Positions 1 through 61,454 of a stretch of 64,000 nucleotides of DNA are shown piece by piece (within the stretch, counting starts at the first letter, position 1; every line of letters begins with the position of its first letter). Both the position numbers and the translations under genes were made by a program. The DNA comes from an uncultured delta proteobacterium (GTDB lineage: Bacteria; Desulfobacterota; Desulfobacteria; Desulfobacterales; Desulfatirhabdiaceae), in contig CAVPHN010000023.1 in NCBI GenBank assembly GCA_963704205.1, positions 1 through 64,000 of the forward strand, in the 5' to 3' direction. A model generated the notes under the pieces. That model did no database searches. It had not been told where the DNA came from and saw only the letters and a list, made by a program, of their open reading frames with translations.

Positions 1-69
1 ATCCGGAAGCCCGTTAAGTCAAATGCTGGAAATAGAAATCCCTTTTAAACATCACGGGGGTACAGTGAA

Positions 70-1089
70 TCATTGATTCTTCTTCAAAGCAGCTTCAATA
101 AAATCGACAATTTCTTTACCGTTGAGGCCTTTTTTATTCAAATCAGTGATATATTGATCCATTATGGGCGCAACGGCAGCCTTCCATCTGGCGCTCTCCT
201 TGCTGTCCTGTCCGATGATCTGGCCGCCCTGCTCCAGAAGATATTTCAATCCGATCATATCGCTGGTGTCCCAGGCTTCACCGTGCTTGACAACCCATTC
301 CGCATTGATTTCCTCGATGATTTTCTGATCCTTGGGGGAAATAGATTTCCATTTGTCTTTGTTCATGACGACAAAAAAGGACGTGGTGTATGCGGATGAG
401 AGATTGGCCGTGCAATACCGGACCACCTCGCCCAGTTTCCAGCCCTTGTTGCCTTCCAGTGGATAGACAGCCCCGTCCACGACGCCTTTTTGCAGCATTT
501 CATAGGTTTCCGGCATGGGTTTGGCTATCGGTGTTCCGCCCAGAGCCTTGACGACTTCGGCGCTGGTGCCGTGGCTTCTGAACTTCAGGGCTTTCATGTC
601 TTCCATTTTCAGAACCGGCTTATCCTTGGTGTGGATCAATCCAGGTCCGTGCGCATGCAGATACATGACCTTCGTGTCATCCAGTTCCTTGGGTTTGAAC
701 TGGTTATAGACATCATTGATGACTTTGGTGGCGGCCGCGCCACTGGTGTAACCCAGCGGCAGATCCACTGCCAGCATGACCGGGAACCGGCCCGGCGTAT
801 AGGCCAGAACCGCAAAACCGATGTCCGAGAGTCCTTCAACAACGCCATCATAGCACTGATTGGATTTGGTCAGGGTCTGTCCGGGGAAGTATTCGATTTT
901 CACGGCACCTGCGGTTCGTTTTTCAACTTCCTTGGACCATTGTTCCGCCAGAATGCTTTGAATATGGGATGGCGGGAAAAAACAACTGTAGGTCAGTTTT
1001 ACTGGCTCCGCGGAACTGATGGTGACCATTCCCGACATGATTGCGACAATGCATAATACACTGAAAAAAATACTCGCTTTTCTATTCAT
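70..1089 (-). CDS. dctP: TRAP transporter substrate-binding protein, DctP family
   Basis: 339-aa ORF with an N-terminal signal peptide (MNRKASIFFSVLCIVAIMSG...). DctP-like motif region (KLTYSCFFPPSHIQS) and typical length. Family assignment from sequence memory. Confidence 0.8.
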   Translation of the reverse strand: MNRKASIFFSVLCIVAIMSGMVTISSAEPVKLTYSCFFPPSHIQSILAEQWSKEVEKRTAGAVKIEYFPGQTLTKSNQCYDGVVEGLSDIGFAVLAYTPGRFPVMLAVDLPLGYTSGAAATKVINDVYNQFKPKELDDTKVMYLHAHGPGLIHTKDKPVLKMEDMKALKFRSHGTSAEVVKALGGTPIAKPMPETYEMLQKGVVDGAVYPLEGNKGWKLGEVVRYCTANLSSAYTTSFFVVMNKDKWKSISPKDQKIIEEINAEWVVKHGEAWDTSDMIGLKYLLEQGGQIIGQDSKESARWKAAVAPIMDQYITDLNKKGLNGKEIVDFIEAALKKNQ

Positions 1090-1670
1090 CGACAGCTCCT
1101 CCGTTTTAAGTCAGAAATTAATGAGGCTAAGAGACAATGAATCCCCGGAAACCGACAAGAATCACCTCCTTTTCCCAATTGGTAATCCAACTGAACCATT
1201 GATTTTCAGATGTGTACGATCCATCATGATCTTTCATGAATTATCCGATCCGTGATTGACCGATTAGAACTGTTTAGCGGTTTGCTTGATGATGTCTGAT
1301 TCTGAAAAATGCGGCTTATCGTATAGCCATATTGTGACTGCAATAATATTAATGCCGGGGTTGTCAAGCGTTATTATCTTCTGAACGCTGCTTTCCGGAT
1401 GCGGCTCTGAAAGTCAACCAAGAATTGTCATGTACAGAACGGATGTCTGGTGGCACAATCACATAAAATTTGAAAATAAATTGACGAGAAAAATGAAATG
1501 CAGAACGGAATCATGCTGTATGGCATGGCACATGAAACAGGTTTCATCGAAAATAAACAATTGTTCATTATAATGAACGAATATACATGAAAAGCTTATG
1601 AGATCGAAGTTTAGAGGACGGATGTTGTCGCTTGTAAGTTTATGATAAACATGGGGCAGGGTATCGTTGT

Positions 1671-2333
1671 CTACATCAACTCCTTGATGCGTTTAATGTC
1701 CTCTGATTTGCCCAGCATGATCAATAGATCGCTGTCCTTGATCACAAAATCGGCCGGTGGGGCAAGGATGAAATTTTCGGGAATGTATTCCTTGATGGCA
1801 ATGATGTTGATATGGTATCTGGCGCGAAGGTCAAGATCTTTCAGGGACTTTCCGATGAAGGCCCTGGGCGGTTCCACCTGAAGCAGGTTGTAGTCTTCGG
1901 CCAGGGGAATAAAATCCAGGATGTTGGGAGTGGAAAGCCCTTTGGCGATGCGAATGGCTATGGCCATTTCCGGGCGAATGACTTCCGTTGCGCCTACTTT
2001 TTTAAGGATTTTCTCATGGTCGTCATCAATGGCTTTGGCCACGATTTTCTTTACGCCGATTTCGTTAAGGTGTAGGCAGATCAGAATGCTGTTGCTGATC
2101 CTTTCACCGGCGCTGACAACCACGCTGTCCATTTCATTCAGCCCCAGCGCCAGTAGATTTTCTTTGTCCGTGGCGTCCATGACGACGGCTTCGGTGCAGT
2201 AAGGATCGATTTCACGGATGAGTTTTCGATCCCGATCGATGGCCACAACCTCATGTCCTTCCTCAAAAAGTGATTTGGCCACATGAAAGCCAAATTTCCC
2301 CAGACCTATCACTGCAAATCGTTTGGTTGCCAT
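1671..2333 (-). CDS. ktrA: K+ uptake regulatory subunit KtrA/TrkA (TrkA-N NAD-binding plus TrkA-C)
   Basis: 220 aa. Rossmann motif AVIGLGKFG at the N-terminus and TrkA-C-like C-terminal half. Immediately downstream of a KtrB/TrkH-type membrane gene on the same strand. Confidence 0.8.
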   Translation of the reverse strand: MATKRFAVIGLGKFGFHVAKSLFEEGHEVVAIDRDRKLIREIDPYCTEAVVMDATDKENLLALGLNEMDSVVVSAGERISNSILICLHLNEIGVKKIVAKAIDDDHEKILKKVGATEVIRPEMAIAIRIAKGLSTPNILDFIPLAEDYNLLQVEPPRAFIGKSLKDLDLRARYHINIIAIKEYIPENFILAPPADFVIKDSDLLIMLGKSEDIKRIKELM

Positions 2334-2338
2334 TTTTT

Positions 2339-3695
2339 TTATCCTAACATCATGCTTTCTTCAGAATATTCAATCCCTGCGTTTTTCTCATCACCGGCAA
2401 TGAAATAAAAAAAACTGAGGACCCCGACCCGGCCGATCAGCATCATGATGCCGAGCAGAAACTTGCCCCAATCGTTGATTGTCGTTGTAGCTCCCATGGA
2501 AAGTCCCACGGTTCCAAAAGCGGATAAGACTTCAAAGAGATAGATCAGAAAATGATTTACAGCCACTGGCCCCTGAGCGGGTATTGACGGCTGCGTGATC
2601 AACATCAAGAAAAAGATGGCGCTTATAGAAAAAACCGACATGCCGACAATTGCCAGGCTTTTTATGACATTGGTGTCACTGATGCTTTTTTTATAGATAT
2701 TGGGATGGAATACGCCCTTAAGTCTGGCTATGGCGGAAACAGCCAGAACCGTAATGGTTGTGGTCTTTACGCCGCCGGCGCATGAACCGGGCGATGCGCC
2801 GATAAACATGAGTATCATCATAAAAAACGCCCCGGCATCACTGAGCGTGGAAAGATCCAGTGTATTGAATCCGGCGGTTCTGGCGGTAACCGACTGAAAA
2901 AAGGAAGCCAGGATTTGTTGGGCCGGGTTCAAGCCTTTCAGAGAGTTGTTCTGCTCCAGCGCCAGATACAAAATCATGCCGGCATAGAATTAAAATGCCC
3001 GTTGTGGTTGTTGTAATCTTTGTTTGAAGGGATATTTTGACGCGTTTTTTTCGTCTTTTGGAAAGATAATCGTAAAGGTCAAAAATAACCGGAAATCCGA
3101 TACCGCCTAAAATGATCAGGCCGCAGATGGTAAAATTGACTGTTATTGAATCTCTGTAGCCGGCAAGGCCTGCGGGAAAAAGAGAAAAACCGGCATTGCA
3201 AAACGCTGAAACCGAGTGAAATACTGCAAAATATGCGGCCTGAGGAATCGGAAAATCGCGGCTCCAGTAAATCGTAAGCAAAACAGCGCCAAGCAGTTCC
3301 GTGAGCCCCGAAAAAATAAAAATGGATTTGAGCAGTGCATATATGTCTTTTCGGGGGGTATGGGCAAAGGACTCCTGCATGACCCTGCGATGCTGGAAGG
3401 AAACATTCATCCCGATAAACTTGAAAAATACCACGGATATGGTCATCAGTCCCAGTCCGCCGACCTGTATCAGTATCAGAATAACGGCCTGTCCGAACAG
3501 CGTAAAATGTGAACCTGTGTCAAGAACGGTAAGCCCGGTGACGCATACGGCGGAAGTCACTGTAAAAAGTGCATCCATAAAGGAAATATAGCCGGAAGCG
3601 TTTGAAACGGGTAGCGTGATCAGGGCGGCGCCAACGCTGATGCAATCCAGAAAACTGAGGATGATGATAGTTGCCGGATGATGTTTTCTGGTCAT
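2339..3695 (-). CDS. ktrB: K+ transporter membrane subunit KtrB/TrkH family (apparent frameshift near 2980-3050)
   Basis: Two overlapping minus-strand ORFs (2838..3791 and 2339..2977) together give a TrkH/KtrB-like polytopic membrane protein (MTRKHHPATIIILSFLDCISVGAALITLP..., ...GGVKTTT...). The reading frame switches near a T-rich stretch. The real start is likely the ATG at 3695. Confidence 0.7.
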
Positions 3696-3901
3696 GACTG
3701 ACGTCTTTGCCGCTGTTTTACCAACTAAAATAAATTGCTTAAAAAAGCTTTTTTGCGATTGGGTGATAACGCGAATCGAACCTAACAACACCCAGGCGCA
3801 GAAAGGTGCTAATTAAGCGCGGACGAACTTGTATCATGGTTAACAGGTAATATGCAACAGGATCATTGTTTACACGCTCAGTTACAGGCAGCCTCAAAAA
3901 T

Positions 3902-4989
3902 CTAATTACAGAGCAGGCTGCTTGCGGGGGTTATAGACTCAAGAGCTCGTCTGGCGGCTTTTTCCAGAATGGTTACGGCAAATATCAGGGACTGGAAGCG
4001 CGGGTCCCGGGTCTGTCCATGATAGAACCGGTAATAGATCTGCTGGGCGATGACCGCCAGGCGGAACAGACCAAAGCCATAATAGAATTCAAAATGATCC
4101 ACGGACCTGCCGGAAAGCCTGCTGTAATACGCCGCGATCTGCTTTCGGGTCAGCGCGCCTTCCAGATGGGTGGGAAGGGTTTTCATGGCCTGCATCTCCG
4201 GGGGTCGCCTGGCTCCACCCAGTATCCAAGGGAACTGCCCAGATCCATGAGCGGATCACCGATGGTAGCCATTTCCCAGTCCAGAACGCCGATGATGTTT
4301 AAGGGGTTGGCGCTGTCCAGAACAATGTTGTCGAATTTATAATCATTGTGAATGATGCAGGGGCAAGGGGAGTCCATCGGTTGATGTGCGTCAAGCCAGG
4401 CCATCACGGATTCGAAATCCGGAGCATCCGGAGTCCTGGCGGCCCGGTATCGGCTGCTCCATCCTTGCACCTGACGCCGGACATATCCTTCGGGTCTGCC
4501 AAAGCCTTCCATGCCGATTTTTCGGTAGTCGAGGCTATGTAGCGCATAATGTATTTCAACCACTTTTTGGAACAGGCGTTCCACCTGGGTCGGCGTCAGA
4601 AACATGCCATTGGGCAGATTCCGGCGCAGAATAATCCCCTGAATGCGTTCCATGACGTAGAAGGGACAGTCCATGATATCCGTATCTTCAGAATACGCCA
4701 GCGGTTCCGGACAATAGGGGAAAAAGGGTTTCAGCGCTTTCAGAATCCTGTATTCCCGTCCCATGTCATGGGCGGATTTGGCTTTGGCGCCAAAGGGAGG
4801 CCGGCGTAGCACCACTTCCTTGTTTTTAAATGTTATCAGATACGTCAGATTCGAATGGCCGCCGGGAAATTGCCGAACAGCCATTTCCCCTTCGAGATGC
4901 GGAATCGAATCGCGAAGAAAAGGATCAATCTTTGCAAGATCCAGTTCTTCGCCGCTGCGAACTTCCGAGGCCTGATCCATTAATTCCAT
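3902..4989 (-). CDS. Phosphotransferase family kinase (APH/ChoK-like; the type found fused to or next to ACAD10/11-like dehydrogenases), frameshifted near 4190
   Basis: The 268-aa ORF has the kinase catalytic motif IIHNDYKFDNIVLD and VLDWEMATIGDP. The 97-aa ORF 3902..4195 continues the C-terminal APH-like region in another frame. The frame changes at a G-run (ccggggg, about 4200). Confidence 0.65.
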
Positions 4990-5225
4990 ACCTTCTCCCT
5001 AAAAACGAGTATTGATCCTTGTTTCGGCCAATCGTGATGAAATCGTAAAAAGTCAAATATCGCGACATCCCGTCATTCCGGCGAATCCCGGATCGGAGTC
5101 CGGGACAGGCGCAGGAATCCTGTGTTTTCGGATAGTTGCTGAAAGACTGGACACCGGCTTTCACCGGTGTGACGAGTTTTTGCGAGACCATCAATCATGA
5201 TCGGGATAAATATCTCACCCAAAAA

Positions 5226-5939
5226 TCATCTTGATGCTTTCATGAAAAAAGCCTCGATAAATTCTTGAAGATATTTCGCATACTGGTCGACCGAAAGATT
5301 CTTCCTCGCGTATTTTCCCCGTTTCAGATACCAGTCCTGAAGCATGGCCTTGATCATGCTGGCTCCAAGCTGGGGATCATGCAAGTGAAACACGTTTTGT
5401 TCCTGTCCCTGAATCAGGATATCACAAATCAGTTTTTCCGTTGTCAGTTCGCTTTCCATGGCTTTTTGTTTTTCGTTCTGGGAAAGGTTTTTGGTTTCCA
5501 TGAACGAGAAATAGAACCAGGGCTGCATGGCTTCACTCAGGTACAGGTGGGTAAAGATAGCGGCCTTTAGTTTGGCGGGTGGGGTGGATTCGGATGCAAT
5601 CCGCTCTTCAAGAATTTCTCCGGTAATGGAGCGCCGCTGGTGCTGAAGCATTTCAAGCAGTTCATCCTTGCTGGAAAAATAATTATAGAGCGCGCCCATG
5701 CTCAGCCCGCATTCCTGGCTGAGATCCCGCATGCTCATGGACTTGAATCCTTTTTTGTTGCTGATTTTGAGTACGGCGCCAAAAATATTATCCAGGTTTT
5801 TGACCGCTGTTTTTTCTTTCTTGATGCGGTTGGTTTGACGGCCCAAATATCTCTGGGCGGCAAAGGATTCCTGGTATATCTCCATTTTGGAGATATTGAC
5901 TTCCTGGCAAAATTCGGCGTAAGTCATTGTACGATCCAT
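5226..5939 (-). CDS. TetR/AcrR family transcriptional regulator
   Basis: N-terminal HTH (SMRDLSQECGLSMGALYNYFSSKDELL). 237 aa. Located 3 nt downstream of the acyl-CoA dehydrogenase gene on the same strand. Confidence 0.8.
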   Translation of the reverse strand: MDRTMTYAEFCQEVNISKMEIYQESFAAQRYLGRQTNRIKKEKTAVKNLDNIFGAVLKISNKKGFKSMSMRDLSQECGLSMGALYNYFSSKDELLEMLQHQRRSITGEILEERIASESTPPAKLKAAIFTHLYLSEAMQPWFYFSFMETKNLSQNEKQKAMESELTTEKLICDILIQGQEQNVFHLHDPQLGASMIKAMLQDWYLKRGKYARKNLSVDQYAKYLQEFIEAFFMKASR

Positions 5940-5941
5940 TA

Positions 5942-7147
5942 TTAATTGGTTTTTTTCCCGGCGTATTTCTTTAGGATCTGCCTGGCAACCGAGATTTTAT
6001 GTACCTCATCCGCACCATCGTAAATCCTGCTGGCCCGTTCATGGCGATACAGAAAGGCGATGATCGTATCATCCGTCATTCCCAGCCCGCCATGTACCTG
6101 AAGTGCCCGGTCGATGACCTTCATCATTGTGTTGGCCACCACATATTTGATCATGGAGATTTCGGTGCGAGCCGCTTTGGCGCCCACCTTGTCGATTCTA
6201 TCCGCGGCATAAAGCACCATGAGGCGCGCGGCCTGAATGTCGGCGGCGCATTCGGCAATCCAGGCCTGAACGATCTCTTTCTGGGACAGGGTCTTGCCGG
6301 GTGCGATGGGCCGGGTAAGCGCCCGCGAGCACATGAGATCAAAACAGCGGTTGCAGATGCCGATCCAACGCATGCAGTGGTGAATTCTGCCCGGTCCCAG
6401 GCGTTCCTGAGCTATGGCAAAGGCGCTGCCCTCGGGACCCAGCAGGTTGGACTGTGGCACCCGGCAATTCTGATACAGGATCTCGCCATGTCCGAAATAA
6501 TCCTCGCCGGATTCTCCCATCACCGGAATGTTTCGCACCTGGTTGAATCCCGGCGTGTCGGTGGGAACGATGATCATGCTCGCGCGCTGGTAAGGGTGGG
6601 CTTCCGGATTGGTAACGGCCATGACAATGGCAAAACGGGCACCATCGGAAGACGAGGTGTACCATTTCTGACCGTTGATGACATAATCGCTGCCGTCTTT
6701 GACAGCCGTGGTATCCATCATCACCGGATTGGACCCGGGCATTTCCACTTCGGTCATGGAAAAGCAGCTGCGGATTTTGCCGGCCACCAGGGGGGGCAGC
6801 CATTTTTCTTTCTGCTCCGGGGTTCCGAACATATGCAGAATCTCGATATTGCCGGCATCCGGGGCCTGGCAGCCAAAAACATAATGGCCCAGGATCGAGC
6901 GGCCCAGGCATTCGGAAACCAGGGCGTGCTCCGTAAGATTGAGTCCCATGCCGCCGTATTCTACAGGGTGGTTCGGAGCCCACAACTCCATCTGCTTGAC
7001 CATCTGGCGCTTTTTTTCAAGTTCCGGAAGAACAGCCTTGAAGCCCCGTGTCAACACGGCCGGTTCCAGAGGAATCACCTCTTTTTGAACAAACTCGTCA
7101 ATCATTTGAGTAATGGTCTGCATCTTTTCCGATACGCTAAAATCCAT
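5942..7147 (-). CDS. Acyl-CoA dehydrogenase
   Basis: 401 aa. ACAD C-terminal signature region (...RIYDGADEVHKISVARQIL) and FAD/CoA-binding middle domain. Typical length. Confidence 0.85.
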   Translation of the reverse strand: MDFSVSEKMQTITQMIDEFVQKEVIPLEPAVLTRGFKAVLPELEKKRQMVKQMELWAPNHPVEYGGMGLNLTEHALVSECLGRSILGHYVFGCQAPDAGNIEILHMFGTPEQKEKWLPPLVAGKIRSCFSMTEVEMPGSNPVMMDTTAVKDGSDYVINGQKWYTSSSDGARFAIVMAVTNPEAHPYQRASMIIVPTDTPGFNQVRNIPVMGESGEDYFGHGEILYQNCRVPQSNLLGPEGSAFAIAQERLGPGRIHHCMRWIGICNRCFDLMCSRALTRPIAPGKTLSQKEIVQAWIAECAADIQAARLMVLYAADRIDKVGAKAARTEISMIKYVVANTMMKVIDRALQVHGGLGMTDDTIIAFLYRHERASRIYDGADEVHKISVARQILKKYAGKKTN

Positions 7148-7263
7148 AACCGCCTCCTGTTTTGTCTCATATCGCCTGCTGGCTGATTCAAAAGCTTTTG
7201 TATCAGATTAACCGGACTATTAGCCATGCGCGGTGCGTGTGCAAATAAAAAATTTATATAATC

Positions 7264-7334
7264 AATAGATTGTATCTATTTTTTGTATAAATATTAATGA
7301 TAAATCACCTGTTACGAAAGACTGTATCGTAACG
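7264..7334. promoter_or_regulatory. Candidate operator palindromes in the AT-rich leader upstream of the ACAD-TetR operon
   Basis: Perfect inverted repeat AATAGAT-tgt-ATCTATT (7264..7280). A second inverted repeat GTTACG-N11-CGTAAC (7312..7334). Both share a TGTATC core and lie about 120-190 nt upstream of the ACAD start codon (7147, minus strand). Confidence 0.3.
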
Positions 7335-7431
7335 CAAAGCGCCTGTCAATAAAATACGATCGCTCGTTTTATCAGGAACGGATAATTGGCCTTCATTTGA
7401 AAGCGATACCCGACATCAGGAGTCCGTGGTT

Positions 7432-7614
7432 ATGAAATTTCATCGCAGGAAACACAAGGATAACGCTACCATTGGGCGCTTTAAGGATGATATCATCGAT
7501 CATGGCGGCAATCCTGAAGCAATTGATGATGCCAGATGCGATATGTCTCATGCCATTATCAAGGGGATTAAAGTGAATCTGCCCAATGCTCAACTGGGCA
7601 ACACAGCCGTTTAG
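7432..7614 (+). CDS. Small hypothetical protein (60 aa)
   Basis: ATG at 7432 is preceded by a strong SD (CAGGAG at 7416..7421). No recognisable domain. Convergent with the CbbQ-like gene. Confidence 0.35.
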   Translation: MKFHRRKHKDNATIGRFKDDIIDHGGNPEAIDDARCDMSHAIIKGIKVNLPNAQLGNTAV

Positions 7615-7662
7615 AAACGATGAAATAGAACATCAGATATTGTAGTACATTATCTAAGCTCA

Positions 7663-8523
7663 TCACAGACTGTCATCCTTTTCTCCAAACATATCATTCA
7701 TTAAATCCAAAAGCGTTTCCTGAAGCCGCCGGTCATCGGACAAGGGAAGGCAGATAGCGGTGCGACAGGCCTCGATGATGGATATTCCCCGCTGAATGAG
7801 GCAGGCCGCATAAATCAGGAGTCGGGTGCTGGCGCCCTCGGTCAGCCCTTGCTCACGGATGTTTCGGATTTTTCCGGCCAGCAGAACCAGTTTCAGGGCG
7901 GTTTCAAAATCCAGACCGCTCTCACGTGAGACGATGGCAGCTTCATTTTCAGGATTCGGATAATGGAATTCCAGGGAGACGAAGCGCTGCCGTGTGCTTT
8001 GCTTCAAGTCTTTCAGCACGGACTGGTACCCTGGATTGTAAGAGAGCACCATCAGAAAATCGGAATGGGCCTGAATACTTTCCCCTTTTTTATCGATATG
8101 AAGGGTTCTGCGGCTGTCGGTCAAGGGATGAATCACTACGGTGGTGTCTTTTCTGGCCTCTACGATTTCATCCAGATAGCAGATGGCACCTGTGCGGACG
8201 GCGCGGGTCAGGGGACCATCCATCCAGACGGTTGCATCGTTAAAAAGCAGATACCGGCCGATTAGATCTGACGCAAAGAGATCTTCGTGGCAGGCTACGG
8301 TAATCAGGGGCCTGCCAAGTCGGTGCGCCATGTATTCCACAAAACGGGTTTTGCCGCAGCCTGTCGGCCCTTTCAGAATAACCGGAAGCCTTGCGTGGTA
8401 TGCGGCTTCAAATAGCGGAATTTCATTTGCTGACGGCAGATAGTAAGGTGCTTCGGCATCATTTTCCCCCTTTTGGGGGGCATCCTCATCCGGGCAGTTA
8501 TTGGCTGGTGACTGAAATGTCAT
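7663..8523 (-). CDS. CbbQ/NirQ/NorQ/GvpN-family MoxR-like AAA+ ATPase
   Basis: 286 aa. Walker [18 protein letters not shown] and Walker B region [14 protein letters not shown]. Strong resemblance to CbbQ/NorQ. No vWA (CbbO/NorD-type) partner gene is visible nearby. Confidence 0.8.
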
Positions 8524-8555
8524 AAAGAAAAATGCTCCGCGAAATAGTTTGCGTG

Positions 8556-8584
8556 TTGCATGAAACTATAAAATATTATATGAT
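8556..8584 (+). promoter_or_regulatory. Candidate sigma70 promoter for the traB-hydrolase-protease cluster
   Basis: TTGCAT (8556..8561), 17-nt spacer, TATGAT (8579..8584). About 100 nt upstream of the TraB-family start at 8683. Confidence 0.3.
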
Positions 8585-8682
8585 ATCAAAAATTTATACT
8601 GTTGACAGAAAACAAGCGACATGTCACAGATTTTGCTTGAGTTAATAACATTGACCCTTAACCCATAAGGATTATATACGGA

Positions 8683-9856
8683 ATGTCTGAATCCAACAAT
8701 CATAATATGGTTCACCGGCTTTGCCTGGAAGGCAAGGAAATCGTTTTGATCGGCACGGCCCATGTATCACAGGAAAGCTCGGATCTGGTCGCCGCGGTGA
8801 TTGAATCGGAAAAGCCGGATACGGTCTGCGTTGAGCTATGCGCTTCCCGCTATCAGTCCATTCGCTTGAAAGACCAGTGGCAGAACATGGACATCGTAAA
8901 GGTCATCAAGGAAAAGAAAACATTTCTGCTGCTGTCGAATCTGATTCTGGCGGCGTTTCAAAAGCGGATTGCGGCAAAGCTCGACATTGTTCCGGGCGCA
9001 GAGATGATTCGCGCCATCGAAGCCGCGGATGCATCGGGTGCGGTCATTCACCTTGCCGACCGGGAGATTCGCGTGACTCTGTCCCGGGCCTGGAAGGCCA
9101 TGACGTTCTGGGAAAAAAACAAGTTATTGTATCATTTGCTGATGTCTTTTACCGAAGCGGAGGAAATCAGTCAGGAAGATATCGAAAAAATGAAAGAGCA
9201 GGATGTTCTGGAAGCCCTGATGGCGGATGTGGGAAAAACCCTTCCCATGTTAAAGCGCATTCTGATCGAAGAGCGGGACCAGTATTTGTCTGAAAAAATC
9301 CGCACGGCACCGGGCAGAAAAATCGTGGCAGTGGTGGGAGCAGGGCATGTTGCAGGAATCAAGGATAACTGGAATAAACCCATAGATATTGCCGCGCTGG
9401 AAACGCTTCCGCCGGATGGCAGGCTTGCGGCGGTCCTTGGATGGGGAATTCCGCTGGTGATCGTCCTGATGATGGCGATCGGATTTTTCACCGGCGGTGC
9501 GCATGTGGGAACCAACATGATCACGGGATGGATACTGACAACCGGCATACTGGCGGGCATTGGCGCTGCCGCAGCCCTGGCCCATCCCCTGACGATCCTC
9601 TCCTCGATTCTGGCAGCTCCCATAACCACGCTTCATCCGCTGATTGCCGCTGGCTGGGTTTCGGGTCTGGTTGAGGCATTTTCTCGAAAGCCCAGAGTTC
9701 GGGACATCGAGGCTCTGCCGTCAGGACATCTTGTCTGTAAAAGGGTTCTGGAGGAACAAGGTGACACGGATCCTTCTGGTGGTGGTGTTTACCAACATCG
9801 GCGCCTCAATCGGAACATTTGTGGCAGTGCCTTTGATGCTGAGAATGATTCACTAA
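8683..9856 (+). CDS. TraB/GumN (TIKI-like) family protein with C-terminal transmembrane region (frameshift near 9700-9750)
   Basis: N-terminal TraB-family region (IVLIGTAHVSQESSDLV...DTVCVELCASRYQS). C-terminal TM helices. The conserved C-terminus (...KGFWRNKVTRILLVVVFTNIGASIGTFVAVPL) is found in the overlapping ORF 9644..9856 in another frame. Confidence 0.7.
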
Positions 9857-9928
9857 ACCCTTGCGCACAATTGCGGTTCAGAAGGTATTTTTCACGGGGA
9901 AAATATTATTTGAATTAAAGCCTGAAAT

Positions 9929-10685
9929 ATGATCAAATTATCACAGAAGGATGCATCCTGTACAGATTTGTCATTCTCGTCGGATGGTTTCCGGTTATCG
10001 GGGACCCTTCATTTACCTGGAATGCCTCTGCCACCGATTGTTGTGGGTTCGCACGGCCTGCTAAGCAGTGGCAGTTCACCCAAACAGATTGAATTGGCCA
10101 GGCAATGCAGCGAAAACGGCATGGCTTATTTTCCGGTTCGATCATCGCGGATGCGGCCATAGTGATGGCGGCAAGGCCGATGCCGCTGATTTTAACGGCC
10201 GTTGCCGGGACCTTCTCAGCGCTGTTGACTTTTTGAGAAACCTTGACTGCCTTAGCCCTGTGATAGGACTGTTCGGCAGCAGCCTGGGAGGGGCGGTTTG
10301 TCTTTCGGTAGCAGCCGCAACACGCGTCCATGCACTGGTTACCGTTGCCGCACCCCTTGACAGCAGCTCTTTGATTGATTCGGCTCAGGGTGTTGTCCCG
10401 GCCGGGCTTTCGGCGGATCTGGCACTTTCTCCCCGGTTTCGGTTCGATCTGTCGGACAGCCTGTCCGCTATCCGCAATCTCTTGATTTTTCATGGGGAAA
10501 ACGATTCGGTTGTACCGGTATCCCATGCCCGGAAACTGTTTGAAAAAGCAGGCCATCCCAAAAAACTGGTGATTCAGGAAAATGGAGATCATGTCATGAG
10601 CCTTCTCCTTCATCAGAAATTGTTCATGCAGGAATCCCTTTTGTGGTTTTCAACGATCCTGAAGACCGACCTGAAGAACAAATAG
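9929..10685 (+). CDS. Alpha/beta-fold hydrolase (dienelactone-hydrolase/S9-like), frameshifted near 10130
   Basis: N-terminal part in ORF 9929..10162. The remainder in ORF 10068..10685 carries the nucleophile elbow GLFGSSLGGAV, then ...IFHGENDSVVP and a histidine near the C-terminus (ENGDHV). Confidence 0.6.
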
Positions 10686-10705
10686 ATCAGGCCAAAGGAG
10701 TCATC

Positions 10706-13700
10706 ATGCCGGAAGAGCTTCCCAGACATTTTTTTACCAGAGCCTTTGTAAAAACCATCCTTCGCCGTTCGCTGGCGCTGGCAACCCTGGTGGGGCTTTT
10801 TTACGGTCTGTCAGCGCTGGTATATGCCACCCGGGCCATATTCAAAGTCAAAATGAATTACGCCGTGGTGCTGGAACGTTTTGGCGGCCACCGCGAGGCC
10901 ATCACGGACATCGGCTGGCATGTTCGCCTGCCGTATTTTACCCGCATTGAACAGGAAGTCTCCCTGATGAACCAGACACTGTTTCTGAGCGGAAGTCCGG
11001 AACCCATGAGAATTATTTCAAAGGAAAGCGTTGCGCTCTGGACATCGGCCGTGCTGACCTACCGGATTCGGGATCTGAAGACCTGGGCCATAGAGAATCT
11101 GGATCCCCTGCACCTGCTTCAGGGAGATTATGACGGCATTGTCAAGGACATCCTTCAGGCCCATGAGGTCAACCAGCTCATCAGCAGCCGTGAAAAAATC
11201 AAGGATGATATTTTTGTCGCCTTAAAATCCAGACCGATCAATGAAGGCGGCCCCACGCTTGAAAAAAAATACGGTATTGAAGTGGTGAGCTTTGTCCTGA
11301 AGGAAACCCGCTTTGGCGATAAACTGATTGAAGCCACGGAAGAAAAGAAACGCAGAGAGATGATCGCTGAAGCGGATAATTATTCGGCCGATCAGGAAGC
11401 CAGCCGGATTCGAAAGCTCTATGCCGCATATCTGGAAAGCATTCAATCCCTGCAGCAGGCCCTTGGCAGGCCGGACGGATCCACGGACGGGGCGCTTCTG
11501 CAGTTTCTGACCCAGCAGAAATGGGCCACGGCCTATGAAAAAAATGTTGAGGGCCAGAACACCATCGTGATTCAGAACACCCAGGATTCGCCGGCAATTA
11601 CCCTTCCCTCTGCTCAGCCTCACCGGAAACCCGACTGGAGAGCGGTAATGGCAAGAAGACTGACAAAAGAAGTCAGGTATATCAACCTTCCTGAAAAACG
11701 GATTGACGAAATCAGCCGGCTTGTGTCTTCCTGGCCGTATGAAACCAAAGCATTCATGCGCTCAAGACTGAATCAGTACAGCCCGCCGTCGGACTGGCTC
11801 AATACCCTGCTGGAAAATTTTCTTTCCTTCTTTTTTGCAGCCCCGGAAAAGCATTTTGTGATTCTGAAAGATCCGGAGATTCTGACCGACTGGCAGCGCC
11901 GTTTTGAAATTTCCGGAAAAACCAATCCTCAGCAGGCCTGGAACAAGATCCTGGAAAAGGAAGTATCGGCCAAGGACTATATCTATCTGCTGTCGCTTCT
12001 GGATAAGGATCTCAGCGACGTTCATGTTCCCGTGGAGCTGACAACGCTGTTTGATAAAATCTACCGGGCCCATATCCGGAAAGAATATCTTTCTGATCCG
12101 TCCGTTCCCAAGGCACCCCTGATTCTTTTTATCGGCCCGAGTGGCAGCGGCAAGACATCTACGGTCCGCCAGACCCTGGAGCAGGTTATTTTTGTCAACG
12201 AGGTGCGGCCCGAGGTGGATCTGGCGCAGAAAAAAGAAGAAGCCCTTGCCGGAGAACCTTTCTGGAAAACCATCGACCAGGTGGACCCAACCCTGGCAGC
12301 AGAAATCGCCAGACGGAAAAAAGCGTCTTTTTACAAATATCCTGGCCCAAGTGCCTGTAATCAGCCGCCTTCTGAAAAACCGGATCGGCAAAAATCTTTC
12401 TCAACTTGAAGAGCAGGGGGTTCTGGTCGATTACACCATGATCACCCCGAACGATTTCCAGACCGCCCTTGCCGGAGAACCCGGCAATTATTTCAAGAAA
12501 GCGCTGGGTGATCCGCGAAGAACAAGCATCCGTCATGTCGAAGAAGCGCACAGCGCTTTTGGAAAAATCGAAGGCAAGGACAGCAGCGGAACCGATCGTC
12601 AGCAGAGAACCCTGATCGATACCGCCAATATCGTGATCGATGAAATCATCAATGGCCGAAGAGACTGCCTGCTGATCGCCACGACGGATCAGCCCGAGCG
12701 CTTTGACCAGGCGATTTACCGGCGTTTTGTGGAAAAGGGAAAAATACTGGATCTGTCGGATTTCTGGAAAAATCCGGAAAACCTGACTGAAGTCGTTCGC
12801 CTGGAGCTGATGCGAAACGATATCGTGGTCACGGATACTCCCGATGACGTCTGTCTGCGCAACGCCCGGTGTATTTCTCCGTCCCAGGTGCGATCGGCTG
12901 TGGAAATAATCTATGTCATTTTTCAGGAAAGAACCCTTAAAATCACCCCGGCCTATGTTCGTAAGCTGGTTCATTCCATCATTGAAATACAGGGCGGCTT
13001 TTCGTCAGCCTACCTCGAGGATTCGCTTCTGGTGAGAAAAGCCTTTGAGCTGGTTGCCAGAAACGCTTTCGGCGATTTGTTCGAAAAAGTCGTGGACCGG
13101 ATGGACCGCCTCGTACACTGGGATGATTATGTGGGAAAAATAAAAGACGTGTTTTCGGAAATGGCGAACAATTGCCTTTATTACAACGTCAGCGAAGAGA
13201 AGGGCGTGGTGTTGAACGGCCCGCCGGGAAGCGGAAAAACCTTTCTTGTCCGGGCCTGGCTCAGCGAAAACAGCGATATTCACGATATCGCCACAAGCGC
13301 GTCCGCGCTTCAGGATCCGGTAAATCCGTGGGAAGGCGCGGTAGAGAACCTGGAAAAAGTCTATGACATCGCCAAAATGATTGCCCCTTCCCTGGTGTTT
13401 TTTGATGAAGGGGATTCCCTGGCGCCCCGTCGCAGTGCTTCCGGCGGCTCTCCTTCCGATAAACTGACCAATAAATTTTTGAATTTAATCGACGGCGAGA
13501 TCCCTCTCAACCAGGTGTTTACGGTTCTGACCACCAACCGGCTCGATATTCTGGATCCGGCCCTGATCCGGTCCAAGCGGCTGAAGGTGCAGACAATATC
13601 CGGCCATTTGCGGCTAAAGGATATTACGGATATTGTTCGACAGGCACTAAAGAATATTCCCCTGGCCCCTGAGCTCTCGATCGAAGCCATTGTGGAATCC

Positions 13701-15080
13701 GCCAAGGGACTCTGCAACACTCCGGCGGATTATTCGGCGTTTGTGGAAAAAGCCCGCTCGCTTCGCAGCACGGAATATGAAGTTCTGCTGCGGATTCGCG
13801 ACCTTGCCGATGATTCGAGTGCGATCCGTGATAAATTTGTCAAATTTAATTTTAAAACCCTGATGGGGATTCTTGAAGCTGTGGATGCGCCGCAGTCGCT
13901 TCGGTCCGCCGTTTATGGGGATCCTGCGGGGTTTTTGTCCCGCTATGGCGATGTGATCGAGTTGCTCAAACCGGTAACAAGTTTGGAAGGCTATCCGCTG
14001 ATGACTTCCCACCTGAATTCCGCCCGCCAGGAAATCTCTCACAGTCCGGTAAAAATAGGCAAAATGCAGCTCGATGATTTTCTGGAGGCCGAACTCAGTC
14101 AGGAACCTCAGGTGGGTTTTATTATCGGCGTGGGCGCAAGCGATGTGTCCGGCGTACTTCTTCCCATTGCCACCAGCCTGACTTACAGACTGTCCGCTGA
14201 AAAAGTTCTTGTCACAGGGGCTGTGTCATCCGGCTCCTCGGCAACAGCGGAACTCGACATGGCGGTTCAGATGACCCAGCAGTCTGCCCAGGAAGCCCTG
14301 ACAATGGTAAAAAACTATCTTCAGGAACTGGACCCCAAGGTCAGCATTCCCAAATTACTGGGTGATTTTCTCGATCGGTATACCATCCATCATCAGCTTC
14401 TTTCCGCATCCTACAACGTCGGCGGTCCATCCGCTGGCTATGCCCTTGCACTGAACACCCTGTCCGCACTGCTTCAGATTCCCATATATCACGATTTCGG
14501 GATTACCGGGGCGCCCTGGACCAAGGGCGTGAAAAAAGGCGAGGTAGGCGGCTCCGTCATCATCGGCGGGCATAAGAAAAAAACAGAAAAAGTCCTCCAG
14601 TATTTACGCAGAATGTATATGCCGCTTCAAAATTACAAAGATCTTGAAAATGAATTCCTGGTGAATTTCTGGGAACAGGGAAAAGACGTTCTTGGGGTTT
14701 CCAATTTTGGAGAACTGGTTCCGGAAGTCGTCTGCCTGGGACCGGAATATGAGGTGATACTGAAGGAACTGATTGCCATTCGGATAGAATATAAACTAAA
14801 AAAAACCGGTGGCAATTCCGCATATGATACGCATCGGGAAAAAATCCTGAAACTTAAGAAAATTCTGAAAGATCAGCTCGAGGCCCATATTGTGGATCGA
14901 CTCGAAGCCATTCGAAAATACCTCAGAAATCCTGTCAGCGATCCCCATCAGTCGCTGGATGAGATTTTTATGGAATATAAAAAATCCAAGCTTATCGGCA
15001 TATCACCGATTCTGAATTTTATGAGCAATCAGAAAAAATGGATAGGCCGCTGGTCCACCTGGGGGCGAAAACCGGAGTGA
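10706..15080 (+). CDS. Giant membrane-anchored SPFH/band-7 - AAA+ - AAA+ - Lon-type (S16) protease fusion protein (about 1460 aa; one frameshift at an A6 run near 12315)
   Basis: ATG at 10706 with AAGGAG 7 nt upstream. A TM helix (LALATLVGLFYGLSALVYA) is followed by an HflK/C-like SPFH domain (NYAVVLERFGG...IGWHVRLPYFTRIEQEVSLMNQTL...). AAA module 1 has Walker A LILFIGPSGSGKTSTV and Walker B IVIDEIINGRRD. AAA module 2 has Walker A VVLNGPPGSGKTFLVRA, Walker B LVFFDEGDSL and sensor-1 VLTTNRLDILDPALIRSKRL. The C-terminal Lon catalytic domain has NVGGPSAGYALALNTLSAL...ITGAPWTKGVKKGEVGGSVIIGGHKKKTEKV (Ser in PSAG, Lys in the GGHKKK motif). ORFs 10643..12409 and 12141..15080 overlap; both frames make sense on either side of the homopolymer. 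Confidence 0.75.
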
Positions 15081-15137
15081 CACCCGCAAGTCGTCGTTCT
15101 TTTTGACACAATCCGATACACCATCAACAGAGGGAAA

Positions 15138-16403
15138 ATGCCTGAAATCAAGCCGGTTATTTATTCACTAGTCGGGGTGGTTTTTATCGCCGTCATTTTG
15201 TCGGCAGGGTGTGACAAGCCCAAACCCCGTTTAGAATGTTCCGACGGTCTCGGATGTGTCCATGTGGCGCCTGGAGAATCCATCAAAATCGGGGTGATCC
15301 AGACCTTGTCGGGCATGGTCGCTCCACTGGGGCTTGAACAGGTTCGGGGAATTGCCCTTGCCATTGACAAACGGCAGGGCAAAATTCTGGATCATTCCAT
15401 TTTGCTTCAGACCGAGGATGCAGGCTGTACCGGAGAAGGCGGCGCCAACGCAGCCCTTAGAATCATCGCGGATCCGCAGACAGTTGCTATTCTGGGAACA
15501 ACCTGTTCAGGCGAAGCTGCCACTGCATCAAAAGTCATGTCTGATGCAGGGCTCAGCATGGTTTCCGGTAACAGCAGTTCACCTTATCTGACCAGTATTG
15601 CCGGTAATCGCGCCCCAAACTGGCAGCCGGGTTATTTCCGGACGGTTCCCAATGAGGAATCTTCTGGCATGGCCGCGGCCAATTATGCCTTTTATGAACT
15701 GGGCATTCGAAAAGCTGCCACCATTCACGATGGCGATATTTATACCCGGGGGCTGACTGAGGGATTCGGACAGAAATTCAAGCTGCTTGGGGGGGAAATC
15801 GTTTTATCCACCATGATAGACAGGGGAGATGAAGAGATGCGCCCGGTTCTGGAGGCTGTAATAAATTCAAGTGCCCAGCTCTTGTTTTTCCCGTTGTTTC
15901 AGCCGGAGGGTAATCATATCCTGTCTCAGGCCAGAAAAACACCCAGTTTTGAAAAAATTGTCCTGATGAGTGATGGTGCGTTGATTGAAAGCTCTTTTAT
16001 CGATTCGGTTAAAGATGAAGGAATAGGCCTGTATTTTGTTGGGCCTTCTTGTCCCGGAGGCCCTGACGTTGATGCGCTGGCAAGAGATTATATGGCGAAG
16101 TTTAACATTCCGCCTTCTGCAAGTTATTATCTCAATGCCTTTGATGCTGCCGGTCTGCTGATGGAGGCCATTGAGCAAGTCGCGATCAAGGAGCCTGACG
16201 GATCTTTGCACATCGGCAGGCAAGCCCTGCGAAACGCTCTGTATGCGACCAGAGGATACAAAGGGGTAAGTGGCTTTTTAACATGTGATGAATTCGGGGA
16301 TTGCGCCATTCCTGCCTTCAACATTCTGCGCCTGGATGATCCGTCAGCCGGAGTTTCCGGCCTGCAGTCCAACGTAATGTTTGCTTACACATATGAAAAA
16401 TAG
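15138..16403 (+). CDS. Type I periplasmic binding protein, LivK-like (branched-chain amino-acid ABC transporter substrate-binding lipoprotein)
   Basis: Signal peptide with lipobox (VILSAGC). LivK-family features (IKIGVIQTLSGMVAPLG...). 421 aa. Confidence 0.75.
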   Translation: MPEIKPVIYSLVGVVFIAVILSAGCDKPKPRLECSDGLGCVHVAPGESIKIGVIQTLSGMVAPLGLEQVRGIALAIDKRQGKILDHSILLQTEDAGCTGEGGANAALRIIADPQTVAILGTTCSGEAATASKVMSDAGLSMVSGNSSSPYLTSIAGNRAPNWQPGYFRTVPNEESSGMAAANYAFYELGIRKAATIHDGDIYTRGLTEGFGQKFKLLGGEIVLSTMIDRGDEEMRPVLEAVINSSAQLLFFPLFQPEGNHILSQARKTPSFEKIVLMSDGALIESSFIDSVKDEGIGLYFVGPSCPGGPDVDALARDYMAKFNIPPSASYYLNAFDAAGLLMEAIEQVAIKEPDGSLHIGRQALRNALYATRGYKGVSGFLTCDEFGDCAIPAFNILRLDDPSAGVSGLQSNVMFAYTYEK

Positions 16404-36562: not shown

Positions 36563-37871
36563 TCAGGTCAGCCGAACCCTGACGGAGCGTGCGTGGGCGC
36601 CGAGCCCTTCGATTTCCGCCAGCCGGATGATATCCGGCGCCTCCTGCCTGAAAGCCGCTTCTGAATAGTGAATCAAACTGGTTTTTTTAATAAAATGGTC
36701 CACGGAGAGCGCAGAAGAGAACCGGGCCGTTCCTGATGTGGGCAGCACATGATTGGGTCCTGCGATGTAATCCCCAACGGGTTCAGGCGTATAATGTCCC
36801 ATGAAAACGGCCCCGGCGTTTCGAATGCGTTCGATATATTCCAGCGGAGAATTCAAATGCAGTTCAAGATGCTCCGGCGCAATGGCATTGGCAAGGTCGA
36901 ATGCAGCAGTAATGTCTTTAACCACAAATACAGCGCCATAGTTTTTAAGCGATTCTTCGGCAATGTCCTGACGCGTCAAATCCGTCAACTGTCTACTGAC
37001 TGCTTCAGCAACCTGTTTGGCCACTTTTCGTGAAGGGGTAACCAGTATGGCGGATGCCATCGGGTCGTGTTCGGCCTGAGACAGCAGGTCTGCTGCAGTA
37101 AATTCTGGATTTGCGGATTCATCGGCAATGATCAGAATCTCACTCGGGCCTGCGATCATGTCAATGCCGACAGCCCCTGCAACCATTTTTTTGGCAAGGG
37201 TGACGTAAATATTTCCTGGCCCCACGATGACATCGCATTTAGGAACCGTGCCTGTGCCATAAGCCATTGCGGCGATTGCCCAGGCGCTGCCGACCTTGTA
37301 AACCGCATCGATCCCGACCCGTTTTGCAGCAATCAGAATATGGGGATTGACTGCCCCGTCCGGAGTTGATGGCGTCGCCATGACAAGGGTGGACACGCCG
37401 GCGATTCTGGCCGGAATGGCGCACATCAAAACTGTCGAAACCAGACGGCGTTTTGCCGGCTGTACCGCCGGGAACATATATTCCAGCGGTACTCACGGGA
37501 TTTACGATCTGTCCCAAAAGCGTTCCGGGCCTCGGGGTATCAATCCAGGATTTTGAAGACTGGTTCCGGTGAAAGCATTCGATTTGGGATGCGGCGCGGT
37601 CCAGGGATTCCATGAATTCCGGACTTACCTTAAGAGCTGCTTCTTCAAATTCCTGAACGCCTGCCCGAATGGTCCCGATGTTGAGACCTGGTGAATCAAA
37701 CCGGTTTGCATAATTGATCAGTGCCGTATCTCCGTTTTTGCGCACATCTTCAAGGATGCGTGCGACAGCCCGCTGATCTTTTTGGTTGAATGATTGCACC
37801 CGGTTTTCAATAACCGAAAGCCGTTTTTCAGCTGATGAAGAAGGATAGGAAAAGATTTTCATGAAAACCAT
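36563..37871 (-). CDS. hisD: Histidinol dehydrogenase (frameshift near 37440-37480)
   Basis: N-terminal part in ORF 37239..37871 and C-terminal part in ORF 36563..37477 (...HYTPEPVGDYIAGPNHVLPTSGTARFSSALSVDHF). Together they cover a full HisD. Confidence 0.85.
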
Positions 37872-59515: not shown

Positions 59516-61454
59516 TTATTTTTTTTCTTTGACTTCCTCAAAATCCGCGTCCACCACATCATCATCAGACGGTTTTTTTGACGAAGTTCCCTCTGATCCG
59601 GGACCGCCCGCGTTTCCTGCTCCGTTTTCGGAAGGGTCGCCGGACTGGGACGCTTTCTGATACATGGCTTCGGCAATCTTGTGAGATGCCTGCATGAGCT
59701 GATCGGTCAGGCGCTTGATCTGTTCGATGTCGTCGCTTTCCATCGCCTTTTTAAGCGGCGTGACCGCTGCTTCCACCTGGCCGCGGGTTGCGCCGTCCAC
59801 TTTATCCCCCAGATCCTTCATGGACTTCTCTGTTGAATAGATCAGCGTGTCCGCGGCATTTCGCGCCTCGACCAGTTCTTTTTTCTTCTTGTCTTCTTCG
59901 GCATGCAGTTCGGCATCCCGGATGAGCTTATCGATTTCATCCTTATTCAGCCCGCTGGAGGCGGTAATCTTGATGGACTGTTCCTTGCCGGTTCCCATAT
60001 CTTTTGCGGAAACATTCACGATGCCGTTGGCGTCAATGTCAAAGGTCACTTCGACCTGCGGCACGCCGCGCGGGGCCGGCGGAATTCCGACCAGCTCAAA
60101 ACGGCCCAGGGTTTTGTTCCCGTTTGCCATTTCCCGTTCGCCCTGAAGCACATGAATGGAAACCGCGGGCTGGTTGTCCGCGGCTGTTGAGAACACCTGG
60201 CTTTTTTTGGTTGGGATGGTGGTGTTCTTTTCAATCAACCGGGTCATCACACCGCCAAGCGTTTCAATGCCGAGTGACAGCGGCGTCACATCCAGAAGCA
60301 GAACATCCTTGACGTCTCCGCCCAGAACCCCGCCTTGAATGGCAGCTCCGATGGCGACAACCTCATCCGGGTTGACGCCTCTGTGGGGTTCCTTGCCGAA
60401 AATACGTTTGACCCGATCCTGAACCGCGGGCATGCGGGTCATACCGCCGACCAGAACCACTTCCTGAATGTCGCTGGGGGTCATGCCGGCATCTTTCAGT
60501 GCCATTCGGCACGGACCTTCAAGGTTGTCCAGCAGGTCCGAAACCAGGGCTTCCAGTTTTGCACGGGTGATCCGGAGATTCAGGTGCTTGGGGCCATTGG
60601 CGTCCGCAGTGATAAAGGGCAGGTTGACATCGGTTTCCATGGAGGTCGAAAGCTCCATTTTGGCTTTTTCCGCCGCCTCTTTCAGGCGTTGAAGGGCCAT
60701 TTTATCGTTTCGAATGTCTATTCCCTGTTCTTTTTTAAATTCGCTGGCCAGATATTCAATCAGCCGAAGGTCAAAGTCCTCGCCGCCAAGATGGGTGTCG
60801 CCGTTTGTGGATTTGACTTCAAATACACCTTCGCCGATCTCCAGAATGGATACGTCAAATGTTCCGCCGCCCAGGTCAAAAACCGCAATTTTTTCTTCTT
60901 TTTTCTTGTCCAGTCCATAAGCCAGCGATGCCGCAGTCGGCTCGTTGATGATGCGAAGCACATTCAGGCCGGCATATTTTCCCGGCGTCTTTTGTTGCCT
61001 GGCGCTGGCTGTCATTAAAATAAGCCGGAACCGTAATGACGGCATCCGTAACGGGTTCTCCCAGATAATCTTCGGCGGTCTTCTTGATATTGGCCAGAAT
61101 ATAGGAAGAAATTTCCGCCGGGCTCAGATTCTTGTCCCGAAGACTAATGCGGATATCGCCGTTGCCGGCTTCTTCCAGTTTGTAGGGAAGAACTTTGATG
61201 TCTCTTTGCACTTCCGGGGTCTGAAATTTACGGCCAATCAGCCGTTTGACAGCAAAAACGGTATTTTCCGGATTGGTAATGGCCTGACGCTTGGCAATCT
61301 GGCCGACAAGACGTTCTCCGCTTTCTGAAATCGCCACAATCGATGGTGTGGTTCGACCGCCTTCAGCATTTGTCAATACCTTGGCTTCGCCCCCTTCCAT
61401 GATGGCTACGCAGGAGTTGGTGGTTCCTAAATCAATTCCAATAATTTTGCCCAT
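59516..61454 (-). CDS. dnaK: Molecular chaperone DnaK (Hsp70), frameshift near 60950-61040
   Basis: N-terminal region ([19 protein letters not shown]) in ORF 60876..61454. The remaining 509 aa are in ORF 59516..61045 (…[18 protein letters not shown]…, substrate-binding and lid domains, acidic C-terminus). Confidence 0.9.

Follow-up and report, generated by a model that had tools for sequence, protein, structure and literature searches.

In the closest described partnerships between SPFH proteins and AAA+ proteases, HflK/C with FtsH and prohibitin with the m-AAA protease, an SPFH gene is paired in trans with a gene for a classic-clade AAA+ protease, and in the SPFH protein one N-terminal helix leads into an SPFH domain and then a long coiled coil (7vhq, 9cz2, 7wi3, 8rrh). 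In the stomatin-STOPP/NfeD (PH1511/PH1510) and QmcA-YbbJ systems, the SPFH gene stands in an operon with a serine-protease gene or a partner gene. Tandem D1-D2 classic AAA+ modules are present in Cdc48/p97/VAT, and in the Cdc48-20S or Cpa-type unfoldases the protease is a separate 20S particle. Lon proteases carry ATPase and protease on one chain, ending in an S16 domain with a GPSAG serine and a GG-x-K lysine; the ATPase of Lon proteins is a single Lon-type module of the HCLR clade. Here we describe a locus that shares features with each of these systems, encoded in a 64,000-nucleotide stretch of contig CAVPHN010000023.1 from an uncultured delta proteobacterium (the window). A reading made from the letters alone, which we call the sequence-only reading, had proposed a single gene of about 1460 amino acids that would place an SPFH scaffold, a two-ring AAA+ unfoldase and a Lon-type protease on one chain. 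We find that the locus is best explained by two adjacent, translationally coupled genes, one for an SPFH protein and one for an AAA-AAA-Lon_C protease (AAA-Lon), and that the apparent fusion is an artefact of extra bases; we put the probability of this explanation as a whole, including the mechanism proposed below, at about 0.8.

Two overlapping open reading frames (ORFs), 10643..12409 and 12141..15080, cover the locus on the plus strand, where all features lie unless stated otherwise. Joined at an A6 run (12317..12322), as in the sequence-only reading, they yield 1457 amino acids; the uncorrected window encodes no 1460-amino-acid chain and gives a 567-amino-acid read-through product with its stop at 12409. 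Deletion of one base at each of two sites produces a 313-amino-acid SPFH/Band-7 gene (10706..11648) and a 1143-amino-acid AAA-AAA-Lon_C gene (11648..15080). The first extra base is in aaacccGactgg at 11631..11634 (about 11633), 15 nucleotides before the SPFH stop. It is absent from L001, L002 and L003, the contigs of three close relatives, in a MAFFT alignment, and deletion of any one of bases 11631-11634 restores a 313-amino-acid ORF that ends ...PHRKPTGER-TAA. Because this single extra base brings the SPFH gene into the frame of the downstream ATG, the two genes merge into the read-through ORF, which continues ...PHRKPDWRAVMARRL... instead of ...PHRKPTGER-stop. Read from the sequence, the coupling junction (11637..11650) consists of a GGAG Shine-Dalgarno-like motif and then TAATG, with TAA at 11646-11648 and ATG at 11648-11650. 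The second extra base, at 12338..12341 (about 12340; aaataTcctgg), splits the AAA-Lon gene and thereby creates the two listed ORFs: the window has caaataTcctgg in place of the relatives' CAAAAA-TCTG or CAAATC-CCTG. Correction at this position gives ...RRKKASFYKYLAQVP..., in agreement with ...RRKKVAFYKSLSRVP... in the relatives, whereas joining at the A6 run gives the wrong RRKKRLFTNILAQ. The sequence-only reading was therefore right that the two listed ORFs belong to one interrupted gene and mistaken in the place of the break, since L001 and L002 have the A6 run too.

The three close relatives, at about 90-92% amino acid identity, have a common gene order of TraB/PrgY/GumN-family gene, alpha/beta hydrolase gene, Band_7 gene (313 amino acids, 92-97% identical to the corrected window product and at the same place) and AAA/AAA/Lon_C gene (1142 amino acids). 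In all three, the Band_7 stop shares its final base with the start codon of the AAA-Lon gene, where it serves as the A of ATG (TAATG or TGATG), a 1-nucleotide overlap, and GGAG is found 8-11 nucleotides 5' of the AAA-Lon ATG. A genome scan with one genome per GTDB species returned 60 loci, the closest at about 89% nucleotide identity, from Desulfobacterales, Desulfobacteraceae and Desulfosarcinaceae metagenome-assembled genomes (MAGs), Desulfatitalea, Desulfospira joergensenii DSM 10085 and an Olavius symbiont. Complete upstream DNA is available for 50 of the 60, at 59-95% amino acid identity, and the SPFH/AAA-Lon pair is kept in every one of them: an SPFH gene of 306-327 amino acids lies directly upstream and is closed by a stop, the AAA-AAA-Lon_C gene (1130-1147 amino acids) has its own ATG, and none is fused in frame. 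The position of the SPFH stop varies between 29 nucleotides past and 104 nucleotides before the downstream ATG; the commonest arrangement is the 1-nucleotide stop/start overlap, present in 17 of the 50 loci (16 TAATG, 1 TGATG). The same separation is seen in the proteins. A search of 5.8 billion clustered proteins with the joined 1457-amino-acid query gave 360 matches, and the best 120 of these homologues are 1069-1147 amino acids long, cover 74-78% of the query and contain no Band_7 domain; homologues in this length range are 69-92% identical. With 50 stops in 50 loci and homologues that lack Band_7, a single SPFH-AAA-AAA-Lon_C frame is not conserved in relatives, and the gene of about 1460 amino acids depends for its continuity on the extra base near 11633. 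The sequence-only reading had named an intact stop between the two listed ORFs as what would speak against it. Those ORFs turn out to be one gene, and the stop lies upstream of their join, between the SPFH and AAA parts of the first ORF, where it is placed by comparison with relatives and not by reads.

A genuine fusion in this particular strain would require that the 1-nucleotide insertion 5' of TAATG is real and that sequencing error accounts for the break at 12340 alone. The window does read through in frame, and the 1-nucleotide overlap means that one inserted base just upstream is enough to fuse the genes, so such a fusion would form easily. It would, however, take one +1 insertion as real while correcting another of the same kind 700 nucleotides downstream, when five other genes of the window (TraB, hydrolase, dnaK, hisD and trkH) also have +1 breaks, and the downstream gene retains a GGAG and an ATG of its own. 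When amino acids 1-545 of the window read-through product were searched exhaustively with HMMER against 1.84 billion representative proteins, no intact junction-spanning protein was found. One 183-amino-acid metagenome fragment, P0194, is the only sequence that crosses the junction, from the SPFH C-terminus to the AAA-Lon N-terminus, which favours fusion, but it then degenerates out of frame. Together with the absence of fusion from all 50 loci, this makes a genuine fusion very unlikely. Also present is P0219, a 147-amino-acid metagenome protein in which the SPFH C-terminus runs into the D2 region; the presence of such short chimeric fragments in public gene calls indicates that similar artefacts exist elsewhere in the databases. 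A long protein could also arise from programmed +1 ribosomal frameshifting at either site or at both, and a +1 shift is indeed what both breaks need. Neither site is frameshifted in the relatives, however, no known +1 slippery or stop context was recognized at 11633 or 12340 on reading the sequence, and unrelated housekeeping genes exhibit the same +1 breaks; we regard this explanation as extremely improbable.

The two extra bases at the locus are not isolated. When positions 7.7-15.1 kilobases (kb) of the window were aligned by MAFFT with L001, L003 and, where it overlaps, L002, exactly four single-base coding insertions were found in the window, at 9721, 10133, about 11633 and 12338-12341. 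The first is in the TraB/PrgY/GumN-family gene (8683..9918; TIGR00261, 321 bits) and the second in the alpha/beta hydrolase gene (9929..10685). Three further genes, all on the minus strand, each appear as two overlapping ORFs that match adjacent parts of one Pfam profile: dnaK (59516..61454; HSP70 profile 1-159 and 152-599), in which the extra base lies in AAAATATGCCGG with no homopolymer, hisD (36563..37871; Histidinol_dh profile 5-119 and 118-411) and trkH (2339..3791; TrkH profile 26-263 and 301-488). Every break in the 64-kb window, at least seven in total, needs a +1 correction, that is, removal of one surplus base, which corresponds to one stray base in about every 9 kb. The five breaks outside the SPFH and AAA-Lon genes thus indicate that the window sequence is error-prone, and a uniform bias toward insertion that strikes even an essential chaperone gene looks technical rather than biological. 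One stray base just 5' of a TAATG overlap suffices to create a convincing giant fusion protein, and findings at the ORF level and frameshift repairs in this window need to be checked against relatives.

The domains that the sequence-only reading had recognized were all recovered. Pfam searches of the joined translation found Band_7, AAA and Lon_C in the proposed order, and since the three matches are above their gathering scores the domain observation is real and far beyond chance. The Band_7 match (PF01145) covers amino acids 47-232 (10844..11401; E 1.1e-15); an SPFH orthologue matches the same profile at E 2e-16, and the window product and orthologue score 58.5-61 bits against a cut-off of 23.6. 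The expected N-terminal anchor is a single hydrophobic segment at amino acids 22-41 (10769..10828), identified by Kyte-Doolittle hydropathy after a basic 21-amino-acid tail. Among 51 orthologues, the 19-residue mean hydropathy of this segment is 1.9-2.8, and the N-terminal tail consistently contains 4-8 lysine or arginine residues. An AlphaFold2 model of the SPFH protein, with a predicted local distance difference test score (pLDDT) of 85, comprises a helix at 8-44, the SPFH domain at 45-203 and helices at 205-252 and 262-281 (the last ending at nucleotide 11548), and its Foldseek matches include HflK/C (4.7e-14), prohibitin (2.2e-13), stomatin (4.8e-13) and QmcA (8.3e-13). As modelled, the protein is built like the ring- or cage-forming SPFH members, with long coiled-coil helices after the N-terminal membrane helix and the SPFH domain. 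The orthologue has no NCBIfam match at E <= 1e-3, leaving the HflK/HflC family models unmatched, and no PDB sequence match at E <= 0.01. Under the positive-inside rule, hydropathy and charge count favour an N-in orientation with a periplasmic SPFH domain, as in HflK/C, whose orientation the basic N-terminal tail likewise suggests for the protein here.

The 1143-amino-acid partner is organized into an N domain (1-150), D1 (151-481), D2 (482-720), a helical linker (721-815), a Lon domain (816-1031) and a helical tail (1032-1143). On the joined translation, the best AAA match is to amino acids 834-962 (E 6.7e-29), a second P-loop stands at 472, and Lon_C matches amino acids 1125-1315 (E 6.1e-7). 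Both AAA+ modules possess the motif set of the type II classic clade (PF00004), as the sequence-only reading had it: each has a Walker A, a sensor 1 and arginine fingers, D2 has a canonical Walker B, and D1 has an E-E variant (E298-E299) in place of D-E. In D1 these motifs are the Walker A GPSGSGKT (12134..12157), the Walker B variant IRHVEEAHS (12528..12554), sensor 1 LLIATTD (12669-12689) and the arginine finger motif IYRRF (12714-12728); a helical insertion of about 60 amino acids occupies residues 192-253 in the model. The classic AAA core of D2 (13218..13583), which gives the best Pfam match, contains the Walker A GPPGSGKT (13218-13241), the pore loop PWEG (13326-13337), the Walker B LVFFDEGD (13392-13415), sensor 1 VLTTN (13524-13538) and the second region of homology DPALIRSKRL (13554-13583). 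The S16 Ser-Lys protease domain (14094..14741) has the catalytic serine motif GGPSAG (14421-14438) and the catalytic lysine motif IGGHKKK (14562-14582). It is followed by a C-terminal helical extension (14742..15077) of about 110 amino acids, with AlphaFold2 helices at 1031-1052, 1059-1092 and 1109-1136 and a basic, hydrophobic tail end that varies among relatives.

An alignment of 31 family sequences, 33-91% identical to P0001, shows how strongly these motifs are conserved. Invariant positions are G163, G168, K169 and T172 of the P-loop and E299 in D1; G523, G526, G528 and K529 of the P-loop together with E586, N629, R640 and R643 in D2; and the whole of G924-G929 (GGPSAG, catalytic S927) and K977 in the Lon domain. 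E298, T345, R357, R358 and D585 are at least 90% conserved. With its Walker motifs, sensor 1, arginine fingers and Ser-Lys dyad intact and invariant or nearly so, the AAA-Lon protein is, as judged from these motifs, predicted to be catalytically competent. For the Lon_C profile (PF05362), scores are 29.6-30.7 bits, above the cut-off of 21.1, and 30 of the 31 family members match it. A profile of the Lon domain matches 8dvh (1.4e-11) and 1xhk (2e-11) in the PDB, as well as 1z0b, 3k1j and 1rr9, with the GPSAG serine and GG-x-K lysine aligned. The PDB sequence matches of the protein are VAT (5vc7, 5e-43), Cdc48 and p97, in two matched stretches, and the AlphaFold2 model of P0001 (pLDDT 80.8) finds the D1-D2 of p97/Cdc48 as top Foldseek match over 620-770 columns. 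No transmembrane segment was found in the AAA-Lon protein, in which the highest 19-residue hydropathy is 1.66, within the Lon domain; we therefore place it in the cytoplasm. Residues 47-64 of its N domain (PSDWLNTLLENFLSFFFA, 11786..11839) form an aromatic, hydrophobic and potentially amphipathic segment with pLDDT <50, which has indels in distant homologues and keeps its hydrophobic and basic character. Speculatively, this segment could bind the membrane as an in-plane helix and so tether an otherwise soluble protease.

The AAA-Lon protein does not fall into any of the families that it resembles. Its AAA modules match Cdc48, FtsH and PAN best, and all of its NCBIfam matches are partial and far below threshold. 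The FtsH model TIGR01241 scores 65.6 bits against 600, on the AAA core only, and there is neither an M41 match nor a transmembrane segment: FtsH-type proteases combine an M41 zinc peptidase with one AAA ring, whereas the protein here combines a Lon S16 Ser-Lys domain with two Cdc48-like rings. The Cdc48 model TIGR01243 scores 84.2 bits against 802.65, on D2 only, and the CDC48_N double-psi barrel was not matched in Pfam; in contrast to Cdc48/p97/VAT, the protein has a family-specific N domain, the D1 E-E Walker B and the D1 helical insertion, and in contrast to Cdc48-20S or Cpa-type systems its protease is covalently attached. Models for LonA, LonB and LonC (TIGR00763, TIGR00764, TIGR02902, TIGR02903) match the protease domain only, at 32-39 bits where the cut-offs are 517-723. 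In the PDB, the Lon-domain profile matches protease domains of the LonB type and of LonA, but the protein has two classic-clade AAA modules and lacks both the LON N-domain and the LonB membrane insertion. The SPFH fold resembles stomatin and QmcA (9oh9, 8z5g); unlike the partners in the stomatin-STOPP and QmcA-YbbJ systems, the partner here is ATP-dependent and soluble, with no NfeD OB-fold or ClpP-like domain detected. Unlike FtsH, the ATPase offers an SPFH cage no transmembrane or periplasmic domain to enclose, and there is one SPFH gene instead of the HflK/HflC pair.

The sequence-only reading had not recognized its architecture as a described family. This stands for the AAA-AAA-Lon_C protein, which has neither a dedicated family model nor a description, and falls for the SPFH fusion itself, which is an artefact. 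NCBIfam has no family-level model for either protein, and the database names of the AAA-Lon protein are generic only ("AAA family ATPase", "transitional endoplasmic reticulum ATPase"). A survey of serine proteases in 2008 listed the Lon_C architectures known at that time, none of which has tandem AAA modules (PMC2605481). In the searchable open-access text, no description was found of an SPFH and AAA-Lon pair or of a classic-AAA/Lon_C fusion; neither Hinderhofer 2009 (PMC2636767) nor the PSP paper (PMC11237479) describes the pair.

The scaffold, unfoldase and protease are not on one chain, given the 120 best homologues without Band_7 and the lack of an intact junction-spanning protein, and with separate SPFH and AAA-Lon genes any partnership would be in trans, like the known ones with which the sequence-only reading had contrasted its single chain. 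By analogy, the two products probably act in trans, as an SPFH/AAA-protease partnership in which the protease is Lon-type. We present a hypothetical mechanism based on the workings of Cdc48, FtsH and Lon and on the HflK/C-FtsH and prohibitin/m-AAA precedents. The AAA-Lon protein would form a hexamer in which two stacked AAA rings feed a Lon protease ring or chamber. This hexamer would act at the cytoplasmic membrane, with the oligomeric SPFH protein as a platform, and membrane or membrane-associated proteins would be extracted or unfolded and degraded by the AAA-Lon complex. The part of the SPFH protein may be that of recruiter, gatekeeper or substrate, the last as stomatin is for the STOPP protease. 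The broader proposal, that the pair constitutes an uncharacterised ATP-dependent protease system of Desulfobacterota and of one Woesearchaeota MAG (38% identity), in which the partner SPFH protein serves as membrane scaffold and recruits or regulates a two-ring classic-clade unfoldase covalently joined to a Lon ring, is in our estimate evenly poised between right and wrong. If true, the known partnerships of SPFH proteins with AAA proteases would gain a Lon-type member, and the few self-compartmentalising AAA+ proteases a new architecture. If the two proteins cooperate, Lon Ser-Lys would be a third protease class partnering SPFH proteins, besides the FtsH zinc and the NfeD/ClpP-like serine classes, and the pair would provide a tractable bacterial system for the control of AAA+ proteolysis by an SPFH ring.

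The pairing extends well beyond the close relatives. Five distant homologues were checked, at 33-38% identity to P0001 and 1068-1132 amino acids in length, and four of them (L064, L066, L067, L068) have kept the pair, which argues that it is an ancient functional unit. In L064, L066 and L067 the Band_7 gene is directly 5' of the AAA-Lon gene, and in L068 the upstream 367-amino-acid protein is SPFH by profile comparison (hhalign 98.6%). L067 (GCA_018221085.1, JAAOXZ010000014.1, 1-3844; protein MBR9683063.1), with the pair at 38% identity, comes from a MAG labelled Candidatus Woesearchaeota archaeon, which suggests either an old origin of the pair or transfer between bacteria and archaea. The L067 pair adjoins genes for a TFIIS-type zinc-ribbon protein, DHFR and thymidylate synthase. 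Cultured carriers of the pair include Desulfospira joergensenii DSM 10085 and Desulfosarcina ovata.

Several points weigh against our reading. The extra bases point to sequencing or assembly errors, a judgement made by comparison with relatives at 80-90% nucleotide identity. The four +1 insertions at the locus fall within 2.6 kb and in four consecutive genes, and the coding sequence at 15.1-25.2 kb has none; this clustering is tighter than a uniform error rate predicts. The cluster at 9721-12341 could be a local region of low coverage or strain heterogeneity, or it could be recent decay, and because of it we keep a small probability for recent pseudogenisation. In that case the frameshifts in the TraB, hydrolase, SPFH and AAA-Lon genes would be real and inactivating and there would be no functional product. 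Essential or housekeeping genes (dnaK, hisD, trkH) have the same kind of +1 break, however, and that all breaks are insertions speaks for technical bias. The ratio of nonsynonymous to synonymous substitution rates (dN/dS) of the corrected SPFH and AAA-Lon genes is 0.05-0.10 against the three relatives, at dS 0.27-0.56, and the 4.4 kb contain no stops and no larger indels, which argues for purifying selection and not decay, while still compatible with very recent inactivation. We therefore consider pseudogenes unlikely and retain the reading of two intact, coupled genes. With respect to the partnership, an N-in topology of the SPFH protein could limit contact with a cytoplasmic partner to the short N-terminal tails or demand a further membrane partner, and the fifth distant homologue, L069, has no SPFH neighbour, its protein also having no Lon_C match.

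The pair could instead be a mobile anti-phage defence module with the SPFH protein as membrane sensor and the AAA-Lon protein as effector. Lon-type proteases and AAA ATPases are known in defence systems, there are weak, generic PADLOC AAA matches (IetA, TRIP13), and an integrase lies near the distant locus L068. The PADLOC matches, however, are to the AAA core only, at E 1e-9 to 1e-10, and the SPFH protein is unmatched, so that a defence system was set aside as quite unlikely; the guanine-cytosine content is also not distinctive, and the locus lies within chromosomal synteny that is conserved across relatives and includes the TraB, hydrolase, periplasmic binding protein, histidine kinase and minCDE genes. 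The TraB and hydrolase genes precede the SPFH/AAA-Lon pair in close relatives only (at least about 78% identity), and about twelve more distant loci have a hydrolase gene upstream at 41-47% identity. A scan of 8400-15300 for promoters and terminators gave counts at the level of shuffled sequence and no terminator between the two genes. Synteny of the window with L001 and L003 ends upstream of a CbbQ-like AAA_5 gene (7663..8523, minus strand). At this break, on the side that corresponds to 1..7670 of the window, L001 and L003 encode a 735-amino-acid protein with an adenosine-deaminase domain that the window does not have, and the CbbQ-like gene of the window contains a 24-nucleotide in-frame insertion at 8455-8478.

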